DNA of 62,277 bases from Mollicutes bacterium (GTDB lineage: Bacteria; Bacillota_I; Bacilli_A; RF39; UBA660), in contig JAAZKW010000028.1 in assembly GCA_012799635.1 (NCBI GenBank), positions 1 to 62,277 of the forward strand. Direction: 5' to 3'. Positions 12,513 to 40,384 of this stretch are shown in pieces (position 1 is the stretch's first letter; every line of letters starts with the position of its first letter). The position numbers were made by a program, and so were the translations under genes. The notes under the pieces were generated by a model. The model had not been told where the DNA came from. It did not search any database and saw only the letters and a list, made by a program, of their open reading frames with translations.

Positions 12513-13115
12513 ATGGCAAGATATACTGGTCCTACATATAAAAAATCTAGAAGATATGGCTTTTCAACATTAGAAACGGGAAAAGAACTAGCTAAAAAAC
12601 CATATCCACCTGGAGTTCATGGTAAAAGTCGTCGTAGAAAATTATCTGAATACGGTGTTCAATTACAAGAAAAACAAAAATGTAGAACATTATATGGACT
12701 AACAGAAAAACAATTTAGAAAAGTTTTTGAAAAAGCTTCTAAAATGAAAGGTATTGCTGGTGATAATTTATTTATTTTACTTGAAAGTAGAATTGATAAT
12801 TTAATTTATCGCATGGGAATGGCTAGAACTAGAAGAAGCGCAAGACAAATTGTTAATCATGGTCACATATTAGTAAATGATATTAAAGTAGATATTCCAT
12901 CATATACTTGTAAGCCTGGTGATATTATATCTGTTAAAGAAAATAGTAAAAATCATCCTGCAATTGTTGATGCTTTAGAACTTAAATTATCTACTCCAAA
13001 ATTTGTAGAATTTGATGCAAAAAAACTATCTGGTAAATATATTAGAACACCAGATAGATCTGAACTTAATCCCGATATTAATGAACAACTTATTGTTGAA
13101 TATTACAGCAGATAA
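12513..13115 (+). CDS. rpsD: 30S ribosomal protein S4
   Basis: MARYTGP, SEYGVQLQEKQK, LESRIDN, INEQLIVEYYSR. Confidence 0.98.
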   Translation: MARYTGPTYKKSRRYGFSTLETGKELAKKPYPPGVHGKSRRRKLSEYGVQLQEKQKCRTLYGLTEKQFRKVFEKASKMKGIAGDNLFILLESRIDNLIYRMGMARTRRSARQIVNHGHILVNDIKVDIPSYTCKPGDIISVKENSKNHPAIVDALELKLSTPKFVEFDAKKLSGKYIRTPDRSELNPDINEQLIVEYYSR

Positions 13116-13143
13116 AAAAAGAGCAAAATAGATGCTCTTTTTT
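13110..13143. repeat. 34-bp direct repeat copy 1: rpsD last codon, stop and bidirectional terminator
   Basis: agataaaaaaagagcaaaatagatgctctttttt; one mismatch with 16530-16563. Confidence 0.9.
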
Positions 13144-13151
13144 AATTTCTT

Positions 13152-13382
13152 TTAATTTTCGTTTTCTATATTATTTTCTTTTTTATTGATAACACTATTA
13201 TCATCAACACTAACATCTTCTTCGTTTAAATATATTCTTAAAGCATCATTATAATTACTAACTTTATTCCATATTTCTTTTAAATGATAAGATTTTATAC
13301 ATATTTCTTTATAAATATCTAATGCGTCATTAATACCTTTGTTTTTTAAATCATAAACTTTTAACATATTCTTCTTTACCAT
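13152..13382 (-). CDS. Small hypothetical ORF overlapping the end of the large island gene
   Basis: 76-aa ORF with an AAGG RBS-like element; may be a gene fragment. Confidence 0.35.
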   Translation of the reverse strand: MVKKNMLKVYDLKNKGINDALDIYKEICIKSYHLKEIWNKVSNYNDALRIYLNEEDVSVDDNSVINKKENNIENEN

Positions 13383-16300
13383 CCTTCGTTTGTAATCGCT
13401 CTATTTCATCTTTAACAATATTCTGGAATTGTATAAGATGCCTAAAATCTCCCTTTTCTTTTTTCCTTTTTTCTATTTCAATAGTCAATTCTTTTAATAA
13501 AACAGTTAAATGATTATATTTTATAGTATTATCATTAATATTCTTAATACCTTCAATTACTATTTCAAACATTTTTTTGAACCCTTTTGCATTAAAATAT
13601 TTATTATATTCTAAATTACCATCATTATAATCATGACAACCAATAATATTATTAAAATACGTTATTATTAACAAAGATAAATATGAAGGATCTTTCGTTT
13701 GTAATAGCTGTTCATATATTAAATAACATTTATCCATCTCTTTTTTAGCAAAATACAATCTATCTACTATAACAATTGGTAAATTCATATCTTTTGCTGC
13801 TTGAAGTGATTGTTCATAATAATATACACATCTAATTTTATGTGTATCTTCTTTACTTATCTTATGTTCTATTAACATTTCATATACAAAATACGCATCA
13901 TTTGCTTCTTTTAACAATTTTATAACATCCTTGCTTATATTTTTTACTTCAAATTCCTTAATTAATTCTTTCCTAGTCATAAAATTATATTTATTATTTA
14001 TATCATCTATTATGTATATTATATATGAAGGCATCCTTTTTAAAATCTTTCCGTCTTCATACTTCATTCTTTCAATTAAAACTTCATTATGTGTATGTCT
14101 AGTATTATTGATTAGTTCCGAAGGTGTTGAAAAAGCAAAATCTATATTTCTAGAAATATCATAATAATGTTTAAACCAATTGGAATTTGCATCGGTATCT
14201 GTAGACATTAATAATTCCTTTCCATTTAAATTATTGAAACCCAAAATAGGGTAGAATACTCTAGCAGTAGCTATTTGATTATTTCCTATGTAACTACAAG
14301 AGATTCCATGTAAATAAAGTTCTGGCCTATTCCAATCATCTAAAAAGCTGCCTTTTCTTGAATAATCACTATATGCTCCTAAAACATGGATTAATAAATT
14401 AAAATCATCTTTTAAAAGGAATATTTTACTTTGATTATTATTAATACTTCTTAGTCTACCTAAAATTTTTGGATCACCGATTAAACCTTCATTATTATCT
14501 AATTTTTCATCATCTGTTATATAATATAAAGTACTATCATAGAGTTTGGCATATTCATTTCTTAGATAGACTTCTAAATATAGATAATTATTAAAGCTTG
14601 GTAACATCATATCACTAGCACTAAACATAAACATTAATTCTTCAATATCATTACAATTAACAATATCATAAATATCAAACAATATAAGTTTAACGTTCTC
14701 ATCTATTTGTAAATTTAATACAAGATTTTTATCTTTAAAATATCGATTTAATATAAAAAGTGATTCCTTTAAATCAAAACCATATTTTTTTAATAAGAGC
14801 ATATTTTTTAAATTACTAATGTCTTGCGCCTCTTTAATCCTTAATTCATATTGTTTATATTTTTTGGTGATAATTCCTAAAAAATTGTTATCTTTTAAGT
14901 CTTCAATATTTTGAATCCCAAAAAAATTATGGGCTTTTTGTAATATATATATATAATTTATTAATTGCTCATCAGTTACATTTTCACTATTATTAATAAT
15001 TCCTTTATAATATAAAAAATGATTTATCACATTATACGATATTGATGAAGTATCATATGGCATTGTATCAATTATTTTTAACATTCTATTTAATAATAGT
15101 AATTCTCCATTAGTTAAGCTGACTACTTTATACTGCAACTTTGGAGATGTACATATTTTATGAAAATATTTTGAAGAAAAAATATTCATACGGGTTTCTA
15201 ACATTAAAGGATTTAAATAAGAAAGAAGTTCAGAGTCAATTAAAACTAAAGATTCTATTTTTTCTTTTATTTGATATGGATCAATAGCTAAAAAATGAGC
15301 GTATAAAGCTGTAAATTTTTCTACAGGTGTTTTTTCAGGAATTCTATTACGTTTACTATAATTTACAATTTTATTACAAAAATTTTCTAAATTATTATAA
15401 TAACAAATATCCTTAAACAAACCTGAATACAAAAGATTATCTGGTAAGATAAACTCTTTTTTATTTGCCATCCAATCAAACAATTCCTTTTGTTCTTCTT
15501 TAGAAGAATGACATTCAATAAGCGAGGGGTTAAGACGACACACTATATCATACCTTTTTAAATTCATAGCAAGTCTAAAAAATTTCTCGTTATACCATAA
15601 TTTTTCTAGCCATTCATCAGGAAGTTTATCAAATATTTCCAAGATCATTTGCAATGTTTCATCCGTATATGCTTTTTCTTTAAACTTAGTAACTAGATCA
15701 TATCTTTTAAATTCTATTGCTTTTTTTAAAAGTTTATCATTACCGGTTAACCTAGGTGAAGTTTTATATAGGTCCAAAGAAAAAAATGTAACACTAATTG
15801 TTCTCACAATATAATCACCATATTTCTCAACTATATAATCTTCAACGGTTTCGTCACAAATACTAATTAAATCATATCTAAATGACTTTACTAATATTTC
15901 AGAAAACTTTTCAATTTTTTCTACGCTTGCAAATTGAAAGTCCATTCTAAAAGGAACTTTTTATAGATTTTCTGCAATTTCATAACCATATTCTTCTATT
16001 ATTTCATCATTAAATGCATCAAAATAGAAAATACCTAAAAAGAAATATAAACCATTATTTAATATCTTTTTTAAAAATCTTGCACTATATCTTAAATTTT
16101 CTGGTATTGTTATGCCAAGTTTAATGACTTGTTCCATTAATTCATCGGTAAAAGTGTCCTCTTTAGCAAGGTCTAAAACAACATATATTCCATTATCCAA
16201 TGCTATTTTTAAAAAGTTAATGTCATTAATAGCTTTATCATATTTACTAAGTAATTCTTTTCTGCAATAAAAAGGAATTCCTGATAACTCGTATTGATGA

Positions 16301-16419
16301 CAAGTTTCAACTGCTGCAATATAATTGCCAACATCTACATAATCAAAAACTAGATGCCATTTTTTATGCTTTTCATCACTTTCTTGCTGTAATTTTTTAT
16401 AATCTATCTCTTTTTCCAC
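13351..16419 (-). pseudogene. About 1020-aa hypothetical protein split by one in-frame TAA (15961-15963); C-terminal domain with ART-like motifs
   Basis: ORFs 15961-16419 and 13351-15945 are in the same frame and read EIAENL*KVPFRMDFQ; motifs LLIHVLG, GISCSY, HNEVLIER. Confidence 0.7.
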
Positions 16420-16529
16420 TATAAATTCTCCAAAAATACGCTTGTTTTTTTCATAATTCCCATTCTATTATATAATATTATTTTTATTTTTTACCTATCT
16501 ACTACAATTTAATTATATCTTACTTTTGA

Positions 16530-16563
16530 AGATAAAAAAAGAGCAAAATAAATGCTCTTTTTT
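16530..16563. repeat. 34-bp direct repeat copy 2 (terminator of the YfcC-like gene)
   Basis: agataaaaaaagagcaaaataaatgctctttttt. Confidence 0.9.
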
Positions 16564-16581
16564 TATAATTATATATTTATT

Positions 16582-18117
16582 TTATTTTGCTACTGCTTGA
16601 GCAATTGGAATAAATATAATGAATATTGCTATTATGATTAACATAAATAACCAAATATATTTAATCCAAGATTTATAATTGATATCTAAATAAGAAAGAC
16701 CAATTAACAGTAAGCCACTTGTTGGTATAAACATATGAGCTAGTCCATAAGTAATCACATATATTGTATGAGTAATATCTACGTGTTTACCTAATACAGT
16801 AATACCAGGGCCAATTAAATATCCAGTATAACCAAGATCTGCATGGAATATAGATGTAACAAAAGCATTTATGGCAACAATATAAGCATTAAAGTTCTTT
16901 GTTAATCCCCAAGCCCAAGCTGTAATACCAGCGAATATTTGCGTCATATAACAGATAATAAATACTGTATAAGCCATAACATATAAACTTATAGGCTTCA
17001 TCATCTTTTTACAACCATCAGCAAAATTAGAAGCAAAATCGTTTAATTTCATCCTATTAATAATTGCAATTACTAAAGAGAATATTAATAAGATTATTGT
17101 TAAACTTGATATTTCCCATGAACCAGGAACAAGATTTTGACTATCTGCTGAACCAAGAATATACTTAAAAATAGTAAAATCTTTACCAAATTTAAGTGAC
17201 ATAAACCACTCATGAAGTTTTTCAAACCACAAAAGATTAAAATTAGTTTTCCAATCTACAAACCCTATTACTACTATTACAAATAATGCAATTAGAAGTA
17301 CTAGAATTGGCCAAATTTTAGCATCACTACGTGGCATTTCAACAGCAAATAAATCTTCTGCTTTTTCGCTAGCTACATTTTTAGCTTCTTTTGTTTTAGT
17401 TTTTCTTATTCCTTTAACAGCAGGCTTATTAGTTTTTCTTGACTTTACAAGTTTTATAACTACGAACAAAACAAATGCAAGTTCAACTAAACCAGCAAAT
17501 ACTAAACGATATTTTAGTGCTGAAGTTACTGAAAATTGCATATAATTGTTAAACCAGAAAAGACCTTCTGTACCATATGTAGCGCCAATTGTTCCAGCTA
17601 AAATTGAGCCAAAAGTAATTGCCATAGTTGTAGTTTTATCAAATTTCGCTCCTAAAAGCACCGTTACTAACAATGGTATAAATACAAATGTTGGTAATGT
17701 GATTCTAAAAATAGATGTTAAGAAAAATAACAATAACATAATAATAATTGCTGAAGTTATGTAATTTTTTTCAACAGTCTTTGTCATCTTTTTAACTAAC
17801 GTTTGATAACCTTTAGTTTCTTTTAGTACACCATATAGTCCGCCTAAAGTTAATAAGAAAATAATTGTTGATAAACCAAAATATATTGCATATAAATATA
17901 TTATTGGAATATCATTAAGTCCCAGACGACTCATTCCGCTTTCAACAAACTTAAGTCCTTGCATAGTACCATTTGGTAATATCCAAGTTAAAGTAAAGGC
18001 TATAAAAATAAATATAAATATCCACTTATATAAATCTTTACCTTTTGACTTCCAAGTAAGTATTGAAAAAAAGAGTGCTAAAACTAAAACAAGTATTATA
18101 CCTAAAACTTTTAACAT
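16582..18117 (-). CDS. YfcC/DcuC-like multi-pass membrane transporter
   Basis: LTWILPNG, GGLYGVL and PTSGLLLIGLSYLDINYKSWIKY are typical of the YfcC family; many TM helices. Confidence 0.7.
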   Translation of the reverse strand: MLKVLGIILVLVLALFFSILTWKSKGKDLYKWIFIFIFIAFTLTWILPNGTMQGLKFVESGMSRLGLNDIPIIYLYAIYFGLSTIIFLLTLGGLYGVLKETKGYQTLVKKMTKTVEKNYITSAIIIMLLLFFLTSIFRITLPTFVFIPLLVTVLLGAKFDKTTTMAITFGSILAGTIGATYGTEGLFWFNNYMQFSVTSALKYRLVFAGLVELAFVLFVVIKLVKSRKTNKPAVKGIRKTKTKEAKNVASEKAEDLFAVEMPRSDAKIWPILVLLIALFVIVVIGFVDWKTNFNLLWFEKLHEWFMSLKFGKDFTIFKYILGSADSQNLVPGSWEISSLTIILLIFSLVIAIINRMKLNDFASNFADGCKKMMKPISLYVMAYTVFIICYMTQIFAGITAWAWGLTKNFNAYIVAINAFVTSIFHADLGYTGYLIGPGITVLGKHVDITHTIYVITYGLAHMFIPTSGLLLIGLSYLDINYKSWIKYIWLFMLIIIAIFIIFIPIAQAVAK

Positions 18118-18179
18118 ACTTTACCTCCTTATCAGAATTATATCACTACAGGACATAAAAAAAAAGCAAAATTGCTTTT

Positions 18180-18980
18180 TTAGTCTAAAAATTCGATATT
18201 TATGGAGCCAAGACTACCATTTATGTCTATTTTTCTTTTACCATTTCCAATAATGGTACTTTTTTTAATTACTTGATTTTCAACTTTAAAATCACCTAAA
18301 CCAATATCAATATCAAGTTCATAATCATTTTTAGTGCCATAAAGTTTAATGTTTGACGATCCAACACCACATTCAATACTGCTATCGCCTTCTAAGTTAC
18401 CTGTAAAAAACAAAGTTCCTAAGCCAAGTTTAAGCTCTAAATCTTTAAAGGTACAATTATCAATTTTTAAACTACCTGCCCCACCATCAATTTGAGTATT
18501 ATCATAAGTAACAATATTTTTTATATCAACTTTTCCAGCACCCAAATCAAGTTCCAAATCTTCAGTTAATAAATAATCTATTTTTACTTTTCCAGCACCA
18601 GCTTCTATTTCAACTTCTTTAAAAACATAATCTTTTGGTACTGTAAGTTTTAATACATTACCCTTAATTAACTTTAAAGCATTAGAATGCTTCTCTTCAA
18701 CAGATAATTTATTATCTTTTTGTTTAATATTTATATTTTGATTATTAGTTTCAATTTTTATTTTTTCACCTTCTAAAATCATAAGTTCTGTATTTTCAAG
18801 TTCAATATCAATTTCTAAAATATCTTTATCAATTTCAAAAGATTGCATTTTACTTTTATTAGTCTTATTTATAATACTTAAAGGCTTTATCTCTTCCTTT
18901 TTAATAAATATTTTATAACCAATAAAAATAATAAATACAAATATAACTAAACTAATTACTCTAGATAAAATTTTAAACAT
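18180..18980 (-). CDS. DUF4097-type beta-strand repeat protein with N-terminal membrane anchor
   Basis: Repeats IEAGAGKVKI / LDLGAGKVDI / IDGGAGSLKI / IECGVGS. Confidence 0.8.
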   Translation of the reverse strand: MFKILSRVISLVIFVFIIFIGYKIFIKKEEIKPLSIINKTNKSKMQSFEIDKDILEIDIELENTELMILEGEKIKIETNNQNINIKQKDNKLSVEEKHSNALKLIKGNVLKLTVPKDYVFKEVEIEAGAGKVKIDYLLTEDLELDLGAGKVDIKNIVTYDNTQIDGGAGSLKIDNCTFKDLELKLGLGTLFFTGNLEGDSSIECGVGSSNIKLYGTKNDYELDIDIGLGDFKVENQVIKKSTIIGNGKRKIDINGSLGSINIEFLD

Positions 18981-19060
18981 ATATGATTATTCTCCTTTAT
19001 ATAAGTATAATATCATATTATTTATTTTATTTAAATTAAAAACCTTGCTTTTGTAAGGCT

Positions 19061-19936
19061 TTAATTATTTATTTGCTTCATCACTTCTTCAGCAAAGTTT
19101 TCAGATCTTTTCTCCATTCCTTCGCCTACTTCAAAACGACGCATTGTTATAATCGTTCCATCATTATTCTTAACAAATGTTTTAACATCAATACTATCAT
19201 CTTTTATAAAAGGTTGTTCTGCTAAACATACTTCTTGATAATATTTCTTAATTCTTCCTTCAACCATCTTCTTAGCTATTTCCTCAGGTTTTCCCTCTTC
19301 CATAGCTTTCTTTAATTGAACTTCTTTTTCATTATCTAAGATATCACCAGGAACATCTTCAGGAAATACATATAAAGGTTTCATTGCAGCTACTTGCATA
19401 GCAACATCCTTAGCTATATCTTCATTTGCTCCTTCAAGTAAAGCTAAAACAGCAATCTTACCTCCCATATGAATATATTCACCAAAAACTTCATTATCCT
19501 TTTTAGTTATTCTTTCAAATCTTCTTAAAGAAAGTTTTTCACCTATTCTAGCTGTCTTAGCAATAATAAAATCTGCTATACTTCCTTCTTCACATTTAAG
19601 TTTATTTGCTTCTTCTAAAGTTGTTACATCGCTTTTTAAAATAGTATTACCAATAGTATCGATCATTGATATAAACTCTTCATTTTTAGATACAAAATCA
19701 GTTTCACTATTTACTTCTAGAATAACAGCATTATTGCCCTTTATATATATATTAGCAAGACCTTCCGCAGCTATTCTACTTTCCTTTTTTAAAGACTTAG
19801 CAATGCCCTTTTCACGAAGATAATTAATTGCTTTTTCCATATCTCCATTTGTTTCACTTAGTGCCTTTTTACAATCCATCATTCCAGCACCAGTTGTTTC
19901 TCTTAATTCTTTAACTAAATTAGCTGTTATTGCCAT
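19061..19936 (-). CDS. tsf: Elongation factor Ts
   Basis: VKELRETTGAGMMDCKKAL, EVNSETDFV. Confidence 0.98.
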   Translation of the reverse strand: MAITANLVKELRETTGAGMMDCKKALSETNGDMEKAINYLREKGIAKSLKKESRIAAEGLANIYIKGNNAVILEVNSETDFVSKNEEFISMIDTIGNTILKSDVTTLEEANKLKCEEGSIADFIIAKTARIGEKLSLRRFERITKKDNEVFGEYIHMGGKIAVLALLEGANEDIAKDVAMQVAAMKPLYVFPEDVPGDILDNEKEVQLKKAMEEGKPEEIAKKMVEGRIKKYYQEVCLAEQPFIKDDSIDVKTFVKNNDGTIITMRRFEVGEGMEKRSENFAEEVMKQINN

Positions 19937-19946
19937 TATTTCCTCC

Positions 19947-21008
19947 TTACTTTAAAAGCTTTAAAAGATCATCTTTTCTTAGTGAAGAGTATCCCTTAAG
20001 ACCTCTTTCTTTAGCAATTGCTTTTAATTCTACTAAAGTTTTATCACTTAGATTTTCTTTTACTTCTTCCTTTTTAATCTCTTTCTTAGTTTCCTTAATT
20101 TCTTCTTTTTTATCTTTTTCTACTACTTTAATTTCTTCTTTTGGGGCTTCCTTCTTAGCTATCTTTTTATCTGTATCTTCATCAACAAAATCAGTTACGG
20201 TATAAACATCACTATCTTTTTCTTTTTTTACTTCTTCAGAAATATGTTCTTCTTTTATTAATTCTTCCATTGACTCATTTTTATTAATTTTATTTTTATC
20301 ATCTTCGGTAAGATAATCAACCATTTCTAAATTAGTTGCTTCACATATTGCATTAGCCAAAACTCCAAGTAATACTTTAATACTTCTTACAGCATCATCA
20401 TTACCAGGAATTACATGATCAACATCATCAGGATCACCATTTGTATCTACTATTCCAAATACTGGAATACGAAGCTTTCTTGCTTCTTTAATTGCATTAT
20501 ATTCTTTTTTAGGATCAACAATAATTAAAGCTTGTGGTCTTTTATCCATCCCACGAATACCCGCGAATAAACGGTTTAATTTTTCATATTCCTTTTTAAT
20601 TTTAATTACTTCTTTTTTAGGTAATACTTCAAACTTACCACTTTTTTCCATTTCTTCGATTTCATCTAATCTTTTAACACGACGACGAATATATGTAAAA
20701 TTAGTAAGTGTTCCGCCTAGCCATCTTTCTGTTATATAGTAAGAATTACTTCTGGTTGCTTCTTCGATTGCAACCTCTCCACTTTGTTTTTTAGTCCCTA
20801 CAAATAAGAACTTTCCCCCATTAGTTGCAATCGTCTTAATTGCTTCATAAGCCTCTTCTAACAACTTTTGAGTTTTTTCAAGATCAATAATATAGATATC
20901 ATCCCTTGAATTAAAAATATACTCTTTCATTTTAGGATTCCATCTTTTAGTTTGATGTCCAAAATGAACTCCAGCTTCTAATAAATAACTCATAGAAACT
21001 ACTGCCAT
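19947..21008 (-). CDS. rpsB: 30S ribosomal protein S2 with charged extension and C-terminal Rho-N-like helical domain
   Basis: [28 protein letters not shown]; tail [33 protein letters not shown]. Confidence 0.97.
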
Positions 21009-21019
21009 GAAATATCCCT

Positions 21020-21105
21020 CCTTCGTTATAACACCTTAATGCTTCATCCTACATCTTCACCCTTTGGGCACTTGAAGATAATAGTCCACATTAATGTTTA
21101 TTTGC
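21020..21105 (-). promoter_or_regulatory. Probable rpsB (S2) leader RNA
   Basis: Nested stems on the minus strand (ttaatg/cattaa enclosing atcttca/tgaagat) directly upstream of the rpsB RBS. Confidence 0.55.
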
Positions 21106-21246
21106 TTTCAATAGCACTTGTATTTTATCATATGTTATATAAAGATAGCAAGGACTAAATTCATACAATACCTTTTTTTGTTTATAAATCACCAATTTTA
21201 ATATAAAATAAATTAAAAATGATATATAATTAAAAAAGAGGTAAAA

Positions 21247-21741
21247 ATGGAATATAGAGATTTATACGATGAAAATAAGAAGTTAACTGGAGATAAGATA
21301 AAAAAAGAAAATAAAATACCAGGGGGTAAATATTATTTAACTGTAATTGTTTTTATTGAAAATAAAAATAACGAGTTTTTACTACAAATAAACAAGAAAT
21401 TTAATTTATGGTCAACTACAGGCGGACATCCTAAAAGTGGAAAATCTAGTTTAGAGGGAATAAAAACAGAATGTTATGAAGAACTTGGCTTAGATATTGA
21501 TTTAAAAGAATTTAATTTATTCAAAACAATAAAAACAGAGGATGATTTTGTTGACTTATATTATGTAAAAAAGGATATTGATTTAAAAAAAATAAAAAAA
21601 GAAAACAAAGAAGTTGAAGATGTTAAATGGTTTTCTAAAAAACAAATTACGAATTTAATAAAAAAGGGCAAGTTACTCCCTTCTCACATAGCGTTTTATT
21701 TGGATTGTTTAAATTACTTAAAACAAACGGATAATAATTGA
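21247..21741 (+). CDS. NUDIX hydrolase
   Basis: WSTTGGHPKSG...TECYEELGL Nudix box. Confidence 0.85.
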   Translation: MEYRDLYDENKKLTGDKIKKENKIPGGKYYLTVIVFIENKNNEFLLQINKKFNLWSTTGGHPKSGKSSLEGIKTECYEELGLDIDLKEFNLFKTIKTEDDFVDLYYVKKDIDLKKIKKENKEVEDVKWFSKKQITNLIKKGKLLPSHIAFYLDCLNYLKQTDNN

Positions 21742-21831
21742 ACTATTCAATCCTAATTTCTTACAATTAATAAATCTTCCTTATTTTCAAAAATACATTC
21801 CGTTACTTGTTAGTATTTTTATTTGTAATCT

Positions 21832-22032
21832 TTAGATTTTAAAAGTTGATAATAGCACTTCATAATCCTTTAACATAAGTTCATACATAATAATTGGATC
21901 ATAACAATCATATGTATATATTTCTTGTTTTACTTCTTTTTTGAATTTTATGCCCTCTAAAGATAATAGTTTTTCTTTAAAATCATTAATATCAATATTA
22001 AGTATTTTTATTTCTAATTCTTCATCATTCAT
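21832..22032 (-). pseudogene. N-terminal fragment of a CYTH-family protein
   Basis: EELEIKIL ExExK motif and QEIYTYD; truncated at 66 aa. Confidence 0.65.
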
Positions 22033-22067
22033 AAAATTTCTTTATAACGTTTTTAAAAGATTCATAT

Positions 22068-22538
22068 CTACCTATTTTTGATTAATGAATTATATTCTTT
22101 TAAACCATCTTCATAACTAATATAATCCTGCCAACATTTCCATTTCATTATAGGTAATTTTTCCTCAGACCAAGGTAGTTTTGTTATTGAATAAACATCT
22201 CCCAAATAAACAATTGGTTCAACTTTTTCTTTTCTTATCAATACTAATCCATAATCTTTTTTCAAAGCTTCTAAAAATTGTTCATGTGTTTTATTATAAC
22301 TATGATAAGAACCGTTTATAAGTCGTACATAGCCTAATGGAGTAAGTATACTTTCAGGTATGCCATAATAAAACTCTAATCCCATAGCTCCATTATCAAC
22401 AATTTGACTATGACAAGGAGATACTTCATCGGTACTTGGGCTATTGATTTCAAAAGTAACTTGACATTGGTTTTTTATTCTAGCAAAGATGTCTTTTCTT
22501 ACTTTTTCCACATTTGTCCAATACGTCATTTTATCCAT
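22068..22538 (-). CDS. Hypothetical protein (gene B of the duplicated unit)
   Basis: 156 aa with RBS AAAGGAGG; paralogous fragment at 23982-24385. Confidence 0.7.
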   Translation of the reverse strand: MDKMTYWTNVEKVRKDIFARIKNQCQVTFEINSPSTDEVSPCHSQIVDNGAMGLEFYYGIPESILTPLGYVRLINGSYHSYNKTHEQFLEALKKDYGLVLIRKEKVEPIVYLGDVYSITKLPWSEEKLPIMKWKCWQDYISYEDGLKEYNSLIKNR

Positions 22539-22583
22539 GGAAAAACCCTCCTTTAAGCGCCTGTTATTTTATATAATAAATTG

Positions 22584-23237: not shown

Positions 23238-23403
23238 AACAAAACCTCCGTTCAAAAGATATTATAACAGTCACATATATCTTTAGTCAATTCATTTATT
23301 CATCTTATTTATAAGTATATTAGCAGTTATATCTCCGGTTACATTTAATGTTGTATATGCCATATCCAATAATTTATATATATCCTAATTATAATCTTAC
23401 CTA

Positions 23404-23962: not shown

Positions 23963-23981
23963 GTTTTTAAAAAATTCATAT

Positions 23982-24385
23982 CTACCTATTTTTTCTTAAT
24001 GAATTATATTCTTTTAAACCATCTTCATAACTAGTATAATCCTGCCAGCGTTTCCATTTCATTATAGGTAATTTTTCCTCAGACCAAGGTAGTTTTGTTA
24101 TTGAATAAACATCACCCAAATAAACAATTGGTTCAACTTTTTCTTTTCTTATCAATACTAATCCATAATCTTTTTTCAAAGCTTCTAAAAATTGTTCATG
24201 TGTTTCATTATAACTATGATAAGAACCGTTTATAAGTCGTACATAGCCTAATAGTATACTTTCAGATAACTCTAATCCCATAGCTCCATTATCAACAATT
24301 TGACTATGACAAAAAGATACTTCATCAGTACTTGGGCTATTGATTTCAAAAGTAACTTGACATTGGTTTTTTATTCTAGCAAATT
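23982..24385 (-). pseudogene. 5'-truncated copy of gene B
   Basis: Homology to 22068-22538 stops near 24382; RBS and start codon missing; internal deletion. Confidence 0.75.
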
Positions 24386-32594: not shown

Positions 32595-35417
32595 TTATCT
32601 TCTTTTAATATTATTAACAATTATTTGGTACTTGTCAAACCTTTTGGAAGATTTCCCCTCAATAAATATTATTTCATTTTCTTTTAAATCACTAACTGTT
32701 TCAAACACCTCTGGAAACAAGGTAAGTTCCACTATTCCCGTTTCATCAGAAGCAACCACAAAAGCCATATTATCACCCTTTTTAGTAGTAATTATAGTTA
32801 TTTTCTCTATTAATAAAGCCATCTTAATATTTTTAAATAAATATTTAATAGTATCTTTTGCTTTTACTACTTTGGTATATATACTTACAGGATGATTACC
32901 AAGATAAGTCCCATAATATTTTATTTCATCTTTAAGAAGCGTTTTATCATCATATTCATCTTTTACATCAATAATTGGTTTATCAAAAGAAAGATCTTCT
33001 AAAGAAGCATAATTAAATATTTCATATTTTTTTTCAATTAAAGCTTTATTAGTAATCTTAAAAGAAAAAAATACTGATGATCTTACTAAAATCTCATATA
33101 TATTATCATTAATAATACTTTTATTTTTAATTAAAAAATCATATATATCTAGATATTCTTCTTCTCTATTATTTATTATTTCATTTATAATATTTTCATT
33201 TAATCCTTTAATCATATTAAAAGGAAGTAATAAATAATTGTTTTTAAATTGAAAATCATTATGCGATTTATTAATATTAGGTTTTAATATCTTAATACCG
33301 CTTTTCTTAAGTTCATTTAAATAATATTTTCTTTTTAAATCATCTTTAGTTTCACTTAAAAGACTTATATAAAAATATACAGGATAATTTGCTTTCAGGT
33401 ATGCAAGACGATATGATATAAGTGAATATGATACTGAATGAGCTTTATTAAAACCATATTCAGCAAATCTTTTAATTTGATTAAATAAATCGTTTAAAAA
33501 CTCTTTATCATAACCATTTTTTATCCCTTTAGCAATAAAATTTTCTTCTTCCTTTATAATAATATCTTCTTTTTTCTTAGATATTGCATTTCTGATATTA
33601 TCTGCTTCATATTCAGTATATCCTGCTATTTTTACAAGTATTCTCATAACTTGTTCTTGATAAATAATAACTCCCCAAGTGCTTTTTAAGATATCTTTCA
33701 AGCTATCATGAACATCTATTTTCCCTTTTTCTTTATTATTTACATATAAATCAATTTGATTACTTGGTCCTGGTCTTACTAATGCCATTGCAATAGAAAG
33801 TTCTTCAAAAGAAGACGGTTTTATCTTTATTAAAGTCTTTTTAGCATAATTTGACTCAAATTGAAAAATATCATTTGTTTCACCATTTTTAAACAACTCA
33901 TAAGTTTTTTTATCATCTAAAGGTATATTATCAAAAGAAATATTTGGTATCTTTTCAATAATATTTTTTATTGTAGTTAAATTCTTTAATGCTAAGAAAT
34001 CCATTTTAAGAAGACCTAACTTTTCTAAATAATCCATAGTTATACCAGTTCGATTTATAACATCATCTTTAATTATAGGAATAATATTTTTTAAAGGTAC
34101 TGATGATATAACTACCCCAGCTGCATGAGTAGAAATGTTTTTCTTTAAATTCTCAAGATGCATTGCAACATCATATAATTCATTAAGTTCACTATACATC
34201 CTTAAATATCTATGTACTACATCTTCTTCTTTATTAGTTTTTAAACTTTTTCTATTATCAATACATTTAATAAACTTATTAAATAAATATATATCTATCT
34301 TAAATACTTTTGCTAAATCCCTTAATATTAATCTTGCTTTATAAGTATTAAAGGTAAGTCCTAAAGCAACAAAATCATCCCCATATTTTTCTTTAACATA
34401 GTTTGTTACTTCGCCTCTTTTAGAATCTTCAAAATCAATATCAATATCAGGCATTTTATTTCGATAGGGATTCAAAAATCTTGCAAAAGATAAATCATAT
34501 TCTATAGGGTCAATATCAGTAATTCCAACAGAATAGCTTACTAAGGAACCTGCAGCACTACCTCTTCCAGGACCTACTAAAATATTGTTTTTCTTTGCAT
34601 ATAAAACATAATCATAAACAATTAAAAAGTAATCAACAAAGTTCATTTCTTTAATTATTTTTAATTCTTCTTCTAATCTTTTTTGATATCTTTTATTTAC
34701 TTTATTATTCAATCTTTTCTCAAGACCAGTCTGAGCAAGCTTACTTAAATATATAAATGAATTAATATTCTTTCTATATACTGGAATATATCTTTTATCA
34801 AAAGGAATTTCAATATTAATATGGTTACTAAATTCTAATAAATATTCATAATCATCTTTAGATATACGATCATTTAAATAATCATTATCACTATGTTCAA
34901 AAGATTTACCCAATAATTTTAAATAATCTATATATTTAATATCTTCTTTAAAAAGACATCTTATATTATTAAGATATACTATTTTATCAGTTAGTATTAA
35001 GGCTACTTTCTTTTCATCATTAGTATTATATGAAATATATATATTATCTTTATTTTCAAACTCTTGGTAAAGATTAATTTCTTTATTTGGTAAAACAACT
35101 AAAATATTATCATCTATTATATCTTTTAAAAGAAGACTTTCTTTTTCATAATTAATAGCAATTAATTTTTGATACCCAATATAATTCTTAGCATATAAAT
35201 ATACCGTATGATCTTCTATTTTTATTTCCATGCCTATTAATGGCTTTATATTATTATTTTTACATTTAAGGTAAAATTCAATACTTCCATAAAGTTCATC
35301 ATCACATATTCCACAAATCTTAATATTTTTTTCAATTAAAACTTTAATTAAATCATCAATTTTAATTAAACTCTTAAGAAGGGAATATTCCGTGATAACT
35401 TTAATTGGAATTAACAT
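32595..35417 (-). CDS. dnaE: DNA polymerase III alpha subunit DnaE
   Basis: GPGRGSAAGSLV, MPDIDIDF, HAAGVVI, YGFNKAHS. Confidence 0.97.
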   Translation of the reverse strand: MLIPIKVITEYSLLKSLIKIDDLIKVLIEKNIKICGICDDELYGSIEFYLKCKNNNIKPLIGMEIKIEDHTVYLYAKNYIGYQKLIAINYEKESLLLKDIIDDNILVVLPNKEINLYQEFENKDNIYISYNTNDEKKVALILTDKIVYLNNIRCLFKEDIKYIDYLKLLGKSFEHSDNDYLNDRISKDDYEYLLEFSNHINIEIPFDKRYIPVYRKNINSFIYLSKLAQTGLEKRLNNKVNKRYQKRLEEELKIIKEMNFVDYFLIVYDYVLYAKKNNILVGPGRGSAAGSLVSYSVGITDIDPIEYDLSFARFLNPYRNKMPDIDIDFEDSKRGEVTNYVKEKYGDDFVALGLTFNTYKARLILRDLAKVFKIDIYLFNKFIKCIDNRKSLKTNKEEDVVHRYLRMYSELNELYDVAMHLENLKKNISTHAAGVVISSVPLKNIIPIIKDDVINRTGITMDYLEKLGLLKMDFLALKNLTTIKNIIEKIPNISFDNIPLDDKKTYELFKNGETNDIFQFESNYAKKTLIKIKPSSFEELSIAMALVRPGPSNQIDLYVNNKEKGKIDVHDSLKDILKSTWGVIIYQEQVMRILVKIAGYTEYEADNIRNAISKKKEDIIIKEEENFIAKGIKNGYDKEFLNDLFNQIKRFAEYGFNKAHSVSYSLISYRLAYLKANYPVYFYISLLSETKDDLKRKYYLNELKKSGIKILKPNINKSHNDFQFKNNYLLLPFNMIKGLNENIINEIINNREEEYLDIYDFLIKNKSIINDNIYEILVRSSVFFSFKITNKALIEKKYEIFNYASLEDLSFDKPIIDVKDEYDDKTLLKDEIKYYGTYLGNHPVSIYTKVVKAKDTIKYLFKNIKMALLIEKITIITTKKGDNMAFVVASDETGIVELTLFPEVFETVSDLKENEIIFIEGKSSKRFDKYQIIVNNIKRR

Positions 35418-35456
35418 ATATCATTTACCTCCTTAATAATATTTTATCATATATAA
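35386..35456. repeat. 71-bp direct repeat copy 1 (dnaE -10 region, RBS, first 10 codons)
   Basis: One mismatch with 40314-40384. Confidence 0.92.
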
Positions 35457-35487
35457 TACTTATATGTATTAAAAATGAGCTACTCGC

Positions 35488-36045
35488 TCATTTATAATCT
35501 TCCCTAATAATTGAATATGACTCCAAGTTAGCATATTTATTGGTATTCTTATCTATTAATCTATTTCTTAATGTTCCTTCATGTTTCATACCCACTTTTT
35601 CCATTACTTTACCACTTCCTATATTTGTAGGAATAAATTGGGCATATATTGTCTCTACTGGGGTTTCTTCAAATAAATAATTAATAACTGCTCTTAGTGC
35701 TTCTGTTGCATAACCTTTGTTCCACCACAAAGACCCATATGCATAACCTATTTCAACAGTATTGTTTGTTTTATCGCAATTTACAGATGTTATAGTACCA
35801 ATTAATGTGTTCGTTTCTTTTAAAATAACAACCCATCTAAATTTATTGTAGTCTTTATATTCGCGAACCCATTTTTCAATTAAATTTTCTGCAACTTTTA
35901 CATCATCATATTTATTCCAAACTGTATATTTTGATACTTTATTATCTCTTCCCACATTAAGAAACAACTCTGCTGCATCGTTTAATTTTGCCTTTCTTAA
36001 TATTAAATTTTTTGTTTCAATTTTTTTAGTTATCGCTTTCTCCAT
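35488..36045 (-). CDS. GNAT acetyltransferase, RimJ/RimL family
   Basis: IETKNLILR, VEIGY, WWNKGYATEAL, NIGSGKVMEKVGMKHEG. Confidence 0.9.
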   Translation of the reverse strand: MEKAITKKIETKNLILRKAKLNDAAELFLNVGRDNKVSKYTVWNKYDDVKVAENLIEKWVREYKDYNKFRWVVILKETNTLIGTITSVNCDKTNNTVEIGYAYGSLWWNKGYATEALRAVINYLFEETPVETIYAQFIPTNIGSGKVMEKVGMKHEGTLRNRLIDKNTNKYANLESYSIIREDYK

Positions 36046-36102
36046 AATATTTTACTTAATAGAAATTAATTCTATTATTTCCTCCTTTATTTGAATTTCT
36101 TT

Positions 36103-37272
36103 TTAATTATTATTATATTCATCTAATAATTCAAGAATTATTTTATTAACCTGCTTTATTTTTACCTGAATATCTTTAATTATATTTTTACCATTAAACA
36201 TTTCTTTGTATTTTTTATTTAATAAATCTATTTCAATTTTACATAAACTATAACTACTAAAATCGTATCCTAATTCATATAATATTATTTCAAATTTAGC
36301 AATTAATGAAAAATATGAGTATATATGTATATATAGTTCTTCTCTTATTCCTAAAATAGCTTTTTTATTTTCATATTCAATAATATCAATAGCATTAATG
36401 GGCACTCCTTTTTTAATGCATATTTTATAAACTAATGCAAAATAACCATAAATTATATCACATTCATGATTCTTAAGCTGTTTTTTTAAGTCTCTAATTA
36501 GGATAACGTCTTTAGTAACACTTGTCTTTTTCTTTATTTTTTTTACAATGTCTATTATTGCACTATTAAAGTCTATTTTACTACAATCAAGCTTTTTTTC
36601 AAGTATCTTAATTTGAGCATTAATATCAAATTCATTATTATCATAAATAGTTTCAAAGCAATTTGTCCACTCATTAAAACCCAACATACTTTTTTCTAAA
36701 TATTTTACTAATTCATCAAAATTTTTCGTTGAATTTAATACAACCATCATTATTTCCTCTGTATTATCTCTACATGAATAATCAAGTACGCCATCTTAAA
36801 AGTGTAAGCTATATTTATTGTTTTTGATATTATCTAAATAATTATTTGATATTATTGGTAAATAATTCGTAATACCGTGTACTCTATCCCTTCCTTTATA
36901 TCCTAAAACATAAGAAATCATATAGGATATTTTATTTTCTAAATTTAATTTTTTTGCAATATCAGAATCACCATAAATAAAACTAATATCAACGTCACTA
37001 AATATTAGATTAGTATTGCGAGCTAAACTACCAGTTAAAAAAATACGCCAATCTTTTATTTTTTCTTGAGGAAAAAAGGAAATTATTTTTTGAATAGTTT
37101 TAATAATAATTTTTTTATGTTTGCTCATAATATATCTCATTTTTTCTTTTGAATAATCATTTAAAACATGTAAATATTCTTCATATAAACTATTGAATTT
37201 TTTTGAATAACTTTTTCTTAATGAATTTATTTTTTTCTGATATTCCCTTTTGCTAATACTTTTATCAACCAA
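36103..37272 (-). pseudogene. Pol-beta-superfamily nucleotidyltransferase with helical C-domain, split by in-frame TAA at 36796-36798
   Basis: LTGSLARN...SDVD motif; ORFs 36796-37272 and 36103-36750 are in frame and read KYSLHF*DGVLDYSCRDNTEEIMMVV. Confidence 0.75.
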
Positions 37273-37400
37273 AATAATTCCCTACTAACAATTAAATGTA
37301 ATTCTAAATTAACATGCTCTTATATACTGTTTTTTAGCCTATCTTTATTTTTTCGATTTTACTTAATAGAAATTATTACTATTGCTTTTTTCTTAGCTTT

Positions 37401-38441
37401 TTATGTCTTTATTTTATAAATATCTTTTTGAAAAATTAGTTGCTTTTTTAAATATTCGTTTAAAAATTCATAAATATCAATGTATTCTTCTTCTTGTATA
37501 ATTTTGTTATATAATTTTTCTCTACCTATTTTTCTCTTTTTTGCTAAATATTTTAACATTCCTTTATTAAAACTGCTTTCTGATGAAAACCACTTGTTAT
37601 TATAAATAAAATATAATTTCATAAACAAATGATCATATTTAAAAACTTCTTTTTCTAAAACAATGTTTTCTTTATTTTCAATATATGGATGAATTAAATA
37701 AATAACTTTTTTGTGAAAAATATGGGCTAAATAATCTACAATATAAATATTAAATAAATGTTTATTACATATAACTGCAATAATGTTTTCTTCATTAAAT
37801 GTTGTTAAAAATAAACTCCAGAAAAAGTCTATATCTAAGTTGTAATCTTTAAACATAACTCCTGTTTTTCTTGATTTAGAAATTAATAACTCTTGTTTTG
37901 AATAATATTCATTAAATTGTTGAAAATTATTATTATATAATTGAGGAATACATTTTATTTTTTTTATATATCTAGGTGAAATTTTTAGAAATAATCTTTT
38001 TTCTTTTTTTTCTTGGCATCCTTTCTTACATTTCGTACATATATATTTATTATTAATTTTTTTAAATAACTTATTGTTATAATATTTCAATGCTTTTTTA
38101 GGAAAATCTATTAATCCACAATCACACTGTATTATTGTTTCACTTTTTTCAATTATTATTTTTTCATCATATAGTCTTTGAATTTTTTCAATAATAATAT
38201 TAATATTATCATTATCTATAAAATAATCATCGAATGTTAACTGTATTTCGTTTAAAAATTTAATAAATCCATTTGTCTTTTTATTCTTAAAACTATGAAG
38301 TAGATTAATTGATAATATATTTTTTATTTTTAATTTTTCAGAAATTAATTTAGATAAAATAATAGATGTTAGCCTTGCGGTTTTTTCTTTAGTAAATGGT
38401 GCTATAGGGAAATTTGTAACAACATAATTATCTTTTTTCAT
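37401..38441 (-). CDS. Degenerate class I aaRS (MetRS-like) catalytic-domain protein
   Basis: Ordered MetRS-like segments (LTFDDY, QRLYDEKII, CDCG/CTKC knuckle, EKRLFLKI, LLISKSRKTGV, IHPYI); no HIGH, KMSKS or anticodon-binding domain. Confidence 0.55.
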   Translation of the reverse strand: MKKDNYVVTNFPIAPFTKEKTARLTSIILSKLISEKLKIKNILSINLLHSFKNKKTNGFIKFLNEIQLTFDDYFIDNDNINIIIEKIQRLYDEKIIIEKSETIIQCDCGLIDFPKKALKYYNNKLFKKINNKYICTKCKKGCQEKKEKRLFLKISPRYIKKIKCIPQLYNNNFQQFNEYYSKQELLISKSRKTGVMFKDYNLDIDFFWSLFLTTFNEENIIAVICNKHLFNIYIVDYLAHIFHKKVIYLIHPYIENKENIVLEKEVFKYDHLFMKLYFIYNNKWFSSESSFNKGMLKYLAKKRKIGREKLYNKIIQEEEYIDIYEFLNEYLKKQLIFQKDIYKIKT

Positions 38442-39327
38442 TTAAAACTCTCTTCATATTTCGGCATAATATTTTTTCTTTTTCTCCTTGAGTAAAAACA
38501 TTACTTGAAGTAAAAGCATTCAATTCTAAGCTATGTGAAGAAAATGGATAATCCGAACCCCAAACAACTTTGGTAATATCTACATTTTCTAAAATAACAG
38601 TATATAAATCATCTAAACTTGCATATTTCTCTATATCAAAAATAATTGCATTTTTAGGCCTTTTTATATAACGATCATATATTCTTTTAGATGGTGCTAT
38701 ATCAATAATAGTATTATCAAGATGGTTCATTTGTTTTATTGCCGGTATATTTAACGCTGCAAAATGAGCGAGTTGGAAGTAATTTTCATATGATTTAATA
38801 AAGTTTATCATATTACTTGGATTTTGGTTGTCAAAGATACCACAATGAACTAACATAGGAACCTTTCCAACAAAAGATGAAACATCATCAAGATTATATC
38901 CACTTAGACCAGTATACGCTTTAATACCCTTTACTAATTTACCATACTTTTCTAAATAATAATCTATTAACCATTTCATTGAAGTTTTTGTCACAGATAC
39001 TAGCAGATAAAAATATAAATTTTTTTCATATTTTAGCAGTTCAAATAAAATATCATTGTATTTTATGTAAGGGTCAATACCACTATATGTTATTAAACCA
39101 CAATTCATACATTTACATAATATTTCTCCTGGCTTATTGCCATCAAACATTGCAATTCTATGATTTTTATTGTTCTTACAACTAATATCTTCAATATAAG
39201 GGTCAATCATTATTACAGACTTATCAATTCCGTTAATTTTCATTAGTTCTTTAAATTCTTCTAATTTTTGTTTAGATTCTTCAACATTTTTTGTTATTGC
39301 AATATGTGCATGTGAATCTATAATCAT
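38428..39327 (-). CDS. Amidohydrolase-superfamily metallohydrolase
   Basis: IIDSHAH, GIKAY, LVHCG, LAHFA, VVWGSDYP, KEKILCRN. Confidence 0.85.
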   Translation of the reverse strand: MIIDSHAHIAITKNVEESKQKLEEFKELMKINGIDKSVIMIDPYIEDISCKNNKNHRIAMFDGNKPGEILCKCMNCGLITYSGIDPYIKYNDILFELLKYEKNLYFYLLVSVTKTSMKWLIDYYLEKYGKLVKGIKAYTGLSGYNLDDVSSFVGKVPMLVHCGIFDNQNPSNMINFIKSYENYFQLAHFAALNIPAIKQMNHLDNTIIDIAPSKRIYDRYIKRPKNAIIFDIEKYASLDDLYTVILENVDITKVVWGSDYPFSSHSLELNAFTSSNVFTQGEKEKILCRNMKRVLNEKR

Positions 39328-39339
39328 ATAATAGCCCTC

Positions 39340-40053
39340 CTATTTATTAAATTCTCTTATTCTTTTTTTAGCCAAGGTAGTATGTGCTTTATTTAACCAA
39401 TTATTTCTTAGTCTATATGTGAATTTGTCAGTAATAACTCTCACTATATCCTTATTATTTAAAGTATAAGTCACAGGAACATAATTACCATTAACAACAA
39501 CTCCAACCATAGTATTTCCAATTTCAGAACTAATATAATAAGCAAGTGGCGCAAATATTTCTATTGTTTCAAGCGCATTTTCTTTTTGCTTAATTTCTAA
39601 TTTATATTCTAACGTTCTCATATTATGTAATCTATCAGCAAGTTTTATTATAATTATTCTAACATCATCGGTTATACTCGTTATTATTTTTCTTGTATTA
39701 GCTACGTCTTGATCTTCTTTACACACAAAGTTAACTTTAGATAATTTTCTAGCCCCATCAACTAATAATGCAATATCCTGATTAAAATAATAAACAATGT
39801 CCTCTTTAGTACATTTTGTATCTTCAAAAACATCATGCAATAATCCAGCACATACTGTATCACAATCAGCATGTAAATCAGCAAGTATGAAGGCAACATT
39901 AATTGGATGCGTTATATATTCTTCTCCACTAATTCTAAATTGTCCATCATGATATTTTTTTACAAATTCATAAGCTTTATTTATTATTTCTAATTCTTCT
40001 GGATTATATTCTCTTATTTTATTAAGTAAATCTTTAATAGTTATTTCTTTCAT
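39340..40053 (-). CDS. RelA/SpoT-derived HD-TGS protein lacking the synthetase domain
   Basis: HDGQFRISGEEYITHP, LLHDVFED, IKLADRLHNMRT, then directly TGS-like EIGNTMVGVVVNG. Confidence 0.85.
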   Translation of the reverse strand: MKEITIKDLLNKIREYNPEELEIINKAYEFVKKYHDGQFRISGEEYITHPINVAFILADLHADCDTVCAGLLHDVFEDTKCTKEDIVYYFNQDIALLVDGARKLSKVNFVCKEDQDVANTRKIITSITDDVRIIIIKLADRLHNMRTLEYKLEIKQKENALETIEIFAPLAYYISSEIGNTMVGVVVNGNYVPVTYTLNNKDIVRVITDKFTYRLRNNWLNKAHTTLAKKRIREFNK

Positions 40054-40073
40054 TTTAACTCCTTTCTAAACAA

Positions 40074-40220
40074 TTAAAAAACGGCGTAAAAAATCTCTTT
40101 TTTTACGCCGCTTATCTTTGCCTCCATATTTATAAGGCATAAACAAGATGTGATAAAACAATATTTCAATTTATTAATAATTTTAATAATAAAATATTTA
40201 ATATAATTAAAACTTATCAT
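40074..40220 (-). CDS. Putative 48-aa leader peptide overlapping an attenuator
   Basis: AGGAG RBS; MISFNYIKYFIIKIINKLKYCFITSCLCLINMEAKISGVKKEIFYAVF*; the last codons form the terminator hairpin. Confidence 0.5.
   Translation of the reverse strand: MISFNYIKYFIIKIINKLKYCFITSCLCLINMEAKISGVKKEIFYAVF
40076..40110 (-). terminator. Intrinsic terminator/attenuator upstream of the HD-TGS gene
   Basis: CGGCGTAAAAAA-agaga-TTTTTTACGCCG followed by TTTTTT, about 20 nt before the ATG. Confidence 0.8.
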
Positions 40221-40313
40221 ATATGCTCCTTTTTATATAAATTAAATTCATACTATAACAAAATTTAATAAAAAGCAAGCTTTAAGATGCTGTTTATGTT
40301 GAAAATATATGAT

Positions 40314-40384
40314 TATTCCGTTATAACTTTAATTGGAATTAACATATATCATTTACCTCCTTAATAATATTTTATCATATATAA
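40314..40384. repeat. 71-bp direct repeat copy 2 (orphan dnaE 5' end encoding MLIPIKVITE*)
   Basis: Matches 35386-35456. Confidence 0.92.

Follow-up and report, generated by a model that had tools for sequence, protein, structure and literature searches.

The window analysed here, a 62,277-nucleotide (nt) stretch of a Mollicutes bacterium genome (assembly GCA_012799635.1, contig JAAZKW010000028.1), carries two blocks of accessory genes that are each enclosed by a direct repeat of one end of a core gene, the stop codon and terminator of rpsD in the first case and the start of dnaE in the second. Both blocks are missing from the corresponding site of the closest congener compared, which holds a single copy of the repeated sequence, and both belong to an already described class of rearrangement, 'insertion with long target duplication'. 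The pattern is in print under that name (PMC2853133). A third segment that was grouped with these two, at the 3' end of a symporter gene, is a segmental duplication. The repeats are confirmed, and of the three cases those at rpsD and dnaE are clean; they fall in a known class whose mechanism is unexplained.

The window is contig C6 of the assembly of an uncultured, low-GC bacterium from biogas reactors (G000; 1,146,780 bases in 61 contigs, 88.65% complete, about 26% G+C), and the public sequencing runs that contain the region are mostly labelled as biogas-fermenter metagenomes. Between 7.6 and 45.5 kilobases (kb) the window holds rpsD, a DcuC-family carrier gene, tsf and rpsB (both names read from open reading frames, ORFs), a symporter gene of the SDF family, an aminotransferase gene, a GNAT gene, polC, dnaE, feoA and a RelA/SpoT-type gene. 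The closest congener (G001) is another species of the same genus, with about 80-84% nucleotide identity. The window is syntenic, in inverted orientation, with contig C3 of G001, whose genome is smaller than that of G000 (0.92 megabases (Mb) retrieved vs 1.15 Mb); 917,297 bases of it were used for whole-genome comparison.

Accessory blocks beside rpsD and dnaE

The rpsD gene for ribosomal protein S4 is intact on the forward strand (12513-13115; an ORF of 200 amino acids (aa) with 95% aa identity to the G001 copy). Its last codon and stop, followed by a bidirectional terminator hairpin, make up the left copy of the first repeat, R1 (13110-13146); the right copy (16530-16566) is the same terminator, now standing at the end of the DcuC-like gene (16582-18117, reverse strand). 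The two copies are 95% alike over 37 nt, with a core of 34 nt at 97% and a longest identical run of 21 nt. The hairpin has two 11-nt inverted arms and a 7-nt spacer, and its two copies are the sole terminator-like sites between 12900 and 16800 (two found, 0.4 expected). The 3.4 kb between them, cargo 1 (13147-16529, reverse strand), are missing from the G001 site, where rpsD and the DcuC gene lie 33 nt apart between colinear flanks. The terminator of G001 has diverged, so the repeat aligns there only in part.

In the second clean case the intact target is dnaE (32595-35417, reverse strand), and the left copy of the repeat, R3 (35383-35465), comprises the first 35 nt of the gene with its ribosome-binding site and 48 nt upstream. 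The right copy (40311-40393) is a dead dnaE start of ten codons, followed by a stop created at the junction. The copies are 94% alike over 83 nt (E 1.6e-29), with a core of 71 nt at 98.6% that includes 63 identical nt. They enclose 4.85 kb, cargo 3 (35466-40310, reverse strand), beyond which lies a feoA-like gene (40411-40692, reverse strand). This gene is directly upstream of dnaE in G001, where cargo 3 is missing and the matches on the dnaE side and the feoA side overlap by 78 nt, corresponding to one R3 copy. The spacing at rpsD and the overlap at dnaE thus show that the two blocks are missing exactly between the repeats. The comparison of occupied and empty alleles that the initial annotation had called for therefore finds both segments gone from G001, with a single copy of each site.

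All three repeat pairs of the initial annotation are present where it had placed them and are, as it noted, mutually unrelated. No third copy of R1, of R3 or of the symporter repeat R2 was found in the 88.65%-complete assembly, so that each occurs exactly twice, and no tRNA or other Rfam match lies near cargo 1 or cargo 3. The copies of R1 and R3 have sharp outer borders and are 94-97% alike within G000, compared with only about 80% identity to the G001 copy. This implies that the duplications are younger than the split of the two species, unless gene conversion has kept the copies alike.

The segments have no recognisable recombinase, as had been claimed from the letters alone. Cargo ORFs of at least 60 aa were scanned with four profile libraries (Pfam, PADLOC, NCBIfam and PHROGs; the truncated ORF B2, 23982-24281, was left out), and no recombinase, transposase or integrase family was found in them, nor any restriction or modification family. 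The G000 assembly encodes seven tyrosine and five large serine recombinases, all on other contigs, and a tblastn search of the window with these twelve proteins gave no match. There are no terminal inverted repeats at the cargo ends.

Cargo 1 encodes three proteins without a family match, of 76 aa (13152-13382), 864 aa (13351-15945) and 152 aa (15961-16419), all on the reverse strand. Large homologues of the 864-aa protein (1,329-1,610 aa) carry at most a C-terminal HD domain, and so no function can be assigned to it. ESM Atlas look-ups of this protein and of ORF A2 of the symporter region returned only unnamed clusters or weak leads below the bar, and a comparison of the cargo 1 DNA with phages, like one of the cargo 3 DNA with plasmids, gave nothing of use.

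The genes of cargo 3, all on the reverse strand, begin with that for a 237-aa protein which we call mini-Rel (39340-40053), in which an HD domain is joined to a TGS-domain end, equivalent in effect to a Rel protein without its synthetase part. A strong terminator (40079-40113) parts the dead dnaE start from the cargo genes. After mini-Rel come genes for an amidohydrolase-like protein of 299 aa (38428-39327), a 346-aa protein (37401-38441), a nucleotidyltransferase of 158 aa (36796-37272), a 215-aa protein (36103-36750) and a GNAT protein (35488-36045). The HD domain of mini-Rel is 58-71% identical to the usual Rel at eight congener loci, vs 41% to the 522-aa Rel that G000 itself encodes, and mini-Rel groups in a tree with the usual congener Rel (support 87/89). 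The usual Rel lies directly upstream of dnaE in two of the eight congener loci (in G009 and G003). Because this remnant of Rel has its counterpart upstream of dnaE in two congeners, cargo 3 probably came from the dnaE neighbourhood of a relative's chromosome, and in this it is unlike a mobile element.

Homologues of the 346-aa protein, at 23-32% identity, occur in seven of 300 other genomes of the family. A nucleotidyltransferase gene adjoins the homologue at six of these loci and, in genera other than that of G000, a Rel or HD gene at three. At one of the seven, in another genus (L042, on contig C30 of G119), 191-nt direct repeats that are 95% alike (5841-6031 and 10036-10226) stand around the nucleotidyltransferase/346-aa module, with a third copy 2.3 kb further on; this is the only one of the seven related loci with a strong flanking repeat. 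The repeats coincide with the 5' parts of small paralogues that we take to be SpoVS-like.

Several features adjoin the two sites. The 522-aa Rel (43958-45526) is a divergent form common to G000 and G001, about 41% identical to the Rel of other congeners, and in G000 the usual Rel has its only relative in the cargo 3 protein of 237 aa (HD+TGS), which lacks the synthetase domain and could be a small alarmone hydrolase. Between it and the 522-aa Rel gene, four tandem paralogues of 201-232 aa (40819-43721) have no family match and are missing from G001. Their promoter, first codons and inter-unit terminator are 90-92% alike and their gene bodies just 67-76%, so the junctions seem to be kept alike or exchanged apart from the gene bodies. 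On the other side of rpsD and divergent from it lie putative type VII secretion genes read from ORFs (6946-12255). They include a 1,539-aa ORF (7636-12255) for a putative EssC-type ATPase, an 84-aa YukD-like ORF and a 107-aa WXG100-like ORF. Downstream of them, positions 1-7384 of the window align to G001 only in patches.

A segmental duplication at the symporter gene

The symporter repeat, R2, pairs 23292-23382 with 25139-25229 (89/91 positions match) and corresponds to the last 30 codons of an intact sodium:dicarboxylate symporter gene of the SDF family (25139-26308, reverse strand; PF00375, E 3.4e-89). It is the edge of a longer duplication of 1.27-1.33 kb, in which 22049-23382 and 23963-25229 are 91-93% alike in the same orientation. 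Copy 1 (22049-23382, reverse strand) contains the ORFs B1 (22068-22538) and A1 (22584-23255) and the copied symporter end (23292-23382), and copy 2 (23963-25229, reverse strand) the truncated ORF B2, A2 (24416-25102) and the true 3' end of the symporter gene. What had been described as foreign cargo bounded by a short repeat is therefore the second copy of a neighbouring two-gene unit.

A gene for a 271-aa protein, which in G001 is intact and follows the GNAT gene, has been broken in the process. Its N-terminal remnant, a 66-aa ORF, lies at 21832-22032 (reverse strand), and its frameshifted C-terminal remnant, 86% alike to positions 39960-40551 of G001 contig C3, lies between the two copies of the duplication (23391-23962, reverse strand). 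On the minus strand the symporter is followed by A2, B2, the C-terminal piece, the copied symporter end, A1, B1 and lastly the N-terminal piece, with the two pieces of the gene in swapped order. Most simply, a unit running from the symporter end through A and B to the 271-aa gene would have been duplicated in tandem, and the two copies of that gene would then have been cut back, one losing its N-terminal part and the other its C-terminal part. We class this case as a local segmental duplication with later deletions; it brought in no foreign cargo, and it did harm a neighbouring gene.

The N-terminal piece is preceded by a remnant of the last codons of a G001-type GNAT gene (about 22041-22067), which matches 27482-27511 and lies 5.4 kb from the intact GNAT gene of G000. 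The remnant may be a fourth, weaker duplicated gene end. The aminotransferase-symporter block is on the opposite side of GNAT relative to G001.

Origin of the duplicated gene ends

We judge the chances to be about even that the rpsD and dnaE cases are long-target-duplication scars made by one homologous and one illegitimate joint, that the symporter case is a segmental duplication, and that none of the three is a dedicated mobile element. The donor DNA would have come from a related bacterium in which the cargo lay beside that bacterium's own copy of the same core-gene end. The first joint would form by RecA-type homologous pairing within the shared gene end. The second joint, an illegitimate one, would be made some tens of bases deeper, on another copy of the target, which could be a sister chromatid or, equivalently, a fragment closed into a circle. 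The overlap of the two joints would yield the direct repeat, and it is because this overlap became a repeat that the essential gene and its terminator or promoter would be kept whole. We infer the order and nature of the joints in this scheme, and likewise gain of the blocks in G000 rather than loss in G001.

The initial annotation had suggested Campbell-type integration of small circles or mobilisation in trans, by a route that keeps the target gene intact. The former, a single homologous crossover in a short shared gene end, describes the product in a form that is formally equivalent to the scheme above. Mobilisation in trans through a shared attachment (att) site is disfavoured, because the repeats are unrelated and have no further copy in the genome beyond the two of each. 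The target genes rpsD and dnaE have indeed been kept intact, but the symporter case broke the neighbouring 271-aa gene. The proposed inventory of recombinases and competence genes yielded the twelve recombinases elsewhere in the genome, together with RecA and ComEC; DprA gave only a sub-threshold partial match. The presence of RecA and ComEC speaks for the two-joint scheme, as do the probable origin of cargo 3 and the lack of any enzyme or att family.

A number of results weigh against the scheme of two joints. The differences between repeat copies number only two to five and do not sort cleanly; those of R3 define no donor-like and recipient-like edges, on its cargo side the dnaE-proximal copy is more G001-like than a simple Campbell model predicts, and the difference at 35394 is a strain polymorphism. 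No foreign tract is found in dnaE, whose identity to G001 stays at a uniform 79-89% in 150-nt windows as far as the 5' end. A donor genome in which cargo 1 or 3 adjoins rpsD or dnaE was not found, and scans for relatives of the 864-aa and 299-aa proteins on metagenome contigs and of the 346-aa protein on genome contigs gave none, although records near G000 may have been left out of these scans. The DprA match, being below threshold, is too weak to establish natural competence. At one of the seven distant related loci (L046, contig C7 of G382), a large serine recombinase is encoded at 268-1905, 2.1 kb downstream of a Rel - nucleotidyltransferase - 346-aa cluster.

The frequency of the pattern points the same way. 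When gaps of at least 400 nt between adjacent colinear G000/G001 matches of at least 250 nt were collected, some of which are perhaps divergent stretches, boundary repeats were found at two of the 12 G000-specific gaps, namely R1 and R3, and repeats of at least 30 nt at 0/35 of the G001-specific ones. The latter showed only trivial repeats, of 14 nt and of 25 nt with copies 270 nt apart, and the G001-specific blocks in the syntenic contig have no flanking repeats. A general route, as first suggested, is thus not borne out in G000. The route is rare in this pair of genomes, and in this comparison the window holds all of its clear cases that are free of integrase and tRNA.

Direct repeats of 30-160 nt with a likeness of at least 80% and a distance of 0.5-10 kb number 27 in G000, vs two inverted ones, and many of the 27 pairs belong to tandem paralogue arrays or multi-copy families. 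Several pairs that were considered as insertion scars proved to be something else. The pair at 6414-8483 on contig C45 is a conserved motif of two paralogous ABC-transporter genes, those on C12 and C48 belong to a multi-copy family at contig ends, and those on C19 and C20 to an 11-member family. A census relaxed to short flanking matches was swamped by repetitive genes, with tandem paralogues on C10, C45, C53 and C11, and was used only for C41 and C42. On C41, a 7.2-kb block without integrase (17276-24485; 2276-9485 in locus L018) lies between direct repeats of 71 nt, of which 21 nt belong to the 3' end of tRNA-Arg(CCT). It encodes a PfkB-like kinase, an APH-type kinase, a DHH phosphoesterase, a 773-aa protein and an NT5C-like protein; the site is uninterrupted in G001, and the genes occur elsewhere in G031 at 73-75% identity. 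On C42, a 12.3-kb block with integrase genes has 25-nt repeats.

Two further repeats were seen at contig ends of this assembly. A stretch of about 90 nt with a promoter, a ribosome-binding site and an ORF start is 98% alike at no fewer than 12 contig ends (examples are C12, 14055-14146, and the window itself, 62249-62277) and probably marks one end of an insertion sequence present in many copies, at which the assembly breaks. Contig C32 (3,673 nt), with recA, a DnaI-like ATPase gene and a DnaB_2/DnaD-like gene, has an exact 85-nt repeat at its two ends and looks circular despite its core genes; further copies of this repeat are on C35, C54, C58 and C8.

Three other histories could account for the rpsD and dnaE cases, and we regard each of them as improbable to a similar degree. 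The first takes the blocks for decayed islands resembling cis-mobilisable elements (CIMEs), which have lost a tyrosine integrase, whose repeats are attL and attR, and which are perhaps still movable in trans. Such elements are known from streptococci as integrase-less islands between att repeats that they share with a resident integrative element, which can mobilise them, and integrases classically target the 3' ends of housekeeping genes and of those for ribosomal proteins. The blocks described here share with CIMEs a cargo between direct repeats at a housekeeping-gene end and the absence of an integrase inside. The inverted arms of R1 have the shape of a recombinase core site, though equally that of a plain terminator, and the seven tyrosine and five serine recombinases elsewhere in G000, the integrase-less C41 block with its tRNA-Arg repeats and the serine recombinase at L046 also speak for this history. 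However, no integrase remnant was found in the window or in 60 kb of the syntenic G001 contig, nor any integrase within 1.5 kb of rpsD in nine congeners. The initial annotation had named integrases in related islands as a refutation; of the seven distant related loci, one has the large serine recombinase gene nearby. Unlike in CIMEs, the repeats are unrelated to each other, none has a third copy that could serve as a resident att site, and no related integrase-bearing element was found. The 5' end of dnaE would be an unusual target, and the content of cargo 3 resembles a relative's neighbourhood rather than an element. We therefore consider this history unlikely.

In the second, the blocks and their repeats are ancestral, and G001 lost them by recombination between the repeats, while the G000 copies were kept alike by gene conversion or by constraint on the terminator and promoter. 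Loss between older repeats in G001 combined with gene conversion in G000 gives the same picture as a recent gain, and this too counts against the two-joint scheme. A deletion between direct repeats yields exactly the single-copy site observed, and G001 has the smaller genome. In addition, mini-Rel is 72-77% identical to congener Rel at the nucleotide level, a distance like that of native orthologues (71-73% for polC and dnaE), so that it could be G000's own Rel in decay. Against this, the copies are 94-97% alike vs about 80% to G001, and this extends to the 35 nt that were once dnaE coding sequence and are under no evident constraint. Neither the 346-aa gene nor the 864-aa gene was found in five congeners (G001 and four others), and the same insertion would still be needed at an earlier time. 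There seems to be only a small chance that this is what happened.

A true target-site duplication, the third, would arise through staggered-break ligation or template switching, with both copies derived from the recipient and no homology used. The near identity of the copies, their sharp outer borders and the failure of their differences to sort by donor and recipient are consistent with it. Transposons of the IS1634 type likewise produce long direct repeats of variable length around their insertions in low-GC bacteria, for which they need a transposase and terminal inverted repeats. No inverted repeats were found at the cargo ends and no DDE_Tnp_1 match in G000, which argues against a transposase of this long-duplication type; two rve-family genes are present, on contig C46 only. 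Double-strand breakage has been suggested for insertions of this class (Furuta et al., PMC2853133). The 88.65%-complete assembly yielded no Ku gene, and a duplication of this kind leaves unexplained why cargo 3 should contain a natural neighbour of dnaE; we hold it to be an improbable origin.

Finally, the initial annotation had raised the prospect that the repeats are assembly artefacts, which could arise in a metagenome if, for instance, a circular element were stitched into the chromosome through shared sequence. The assembly is of the metagenome type, in 61 contigs, and the public-run contigs break within the 63-nt R3 core and cannot link its two sides, so that with short k-mers the integrated form looks like an empty site plus a circle. 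The joints listed for these runs have sides of 21-38 nt, are noise-like and in no instance skip from 35465 to 40393, and the data are hardly able to show a circle or an empty site. On the other hand, a contig of another study (X11 record 8, 35283-35964) holds dnaE sequence, the repeat and the adjoining part of cargo 3 in one piece, and the X4 and X5 contigs (23353-24025) join the symporter-end copy, the spacer and the second unit. Because these independent contigs bridge the left R3 junction and those of the symporter case, because the copies differ in sequence, which assemblers do not invent, and because the 21-nt identical run of R1 is probably too short to confuse the usual k-mers, an artefact is very improbable.

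Relation to known rearrangements and implications

The original paper on insertion with long target duplication is reportedly that of Nobusato and colleagues from 2000 (Gene 259:99). A later account (Furuta, Abe & Kobayashi 2010, NAR 38:2428, PMC2853133) describes inserts of <20 kb with target duplications of >30 base pairs (bp), no other mobile element linked, and a repeat that aligns to one copy in a genome without the insert. Among its examples are 46-bp repeats, found nowhere else in the genome, that overlap the 3' ends of genes; the duplications span 30-400 bp, the cases are mostly in naturally competent species, a 'transposon of Mycoplasma' is mentioned and the mechanism is left open. 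The rpsD and dnaE cases share with this class a few-kb insert (3.4 and 4.85 kb) without a linked mobility gene, a single site copy in a relative and a repeat that is unique to the site. The repeats measure 34-37 nt for R1, just above the limit, and 71-83 nt for R3. The empty genome is represented by G001 contig C3, from another species, whereas the published comparisons used strains of the same species. R1 resembles the published cases further in overlapping a gene 3' end. In contrast to them, the cargo is not a restriction-modification system, a feature that belongs to their screen and not to the rearrangement itself. They also differ from ours in that one target here is the leader and 5' end of a gene, that a portion of one cargo seems to derive from the homologous neighbourhood of a relative, and that the host is an uncultured low-GC biogas bacterium with no established competence.

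Related processes have been described elsewhere. Homology-facilitated illegitimate recombination is discussed for immunity-gene arrays (Kirchberger et al. 2017, PMC5361080), and transformation can drive unequal crossing-over between sister chromatids (Johnston et al. 2013, PMC3784515). Both processes resemble the arrangement proposed above in combining one homologous anchor with one illegitimate or misplaced joint, in using no dedicated enzyme and in displacing gene remnants. The usual outcome described for homology-facilitated illegitimate recombination is an insertion with deletion and not the anchor duplication seen here, and the pneumococcal duplications, unlike those of the window, cover 100-900 kb between pre-existing repeats. 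A literature search for Campbell-like integration with transformation, or for integrase-less islands with direct repeats, turned up nothing relevant. The minimal mobile elements of Neisseria are whole-gene cassettes between conserved genes that are exchanged without a recombinase, by double crossover in the flanks. The blocks of the window differ from these in being defined by a duplicated target.

As the pattern is rare in the genome pair and already in print, it does not by itself change the understanding of gene transfer. Gene gain without a recombinase, of a class that has been little studied, is here exemplified in an uncultured biogas bacterium and with cargo other than restriction-modification genes. 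One concrete clue to the source of such cargo is the remnant of Rel, a gene that relatives naturally have beside dnaE. What remains of the duplicated ends are dead gene starts, spare terminators and repeats that are able to delete or amplify the block later, and such leftovers matter for annotation and for the reading of gain and loss in metagenome-assembled genomes. Tentatively, and with considerable doubt, we suggest that the cargo is no selfish cassette, that slices of a relative's homologous chromosomal neighbourhood are captured by joints of this kind, and that small-genome anaerobes poor in mobile elements regularly stack accessory operons beside essential genes in this way. If true, this locus may show how insertions with long target duplication arise, a mechanism unexplained since 2000, and the route would account for three scars within 27 kb.

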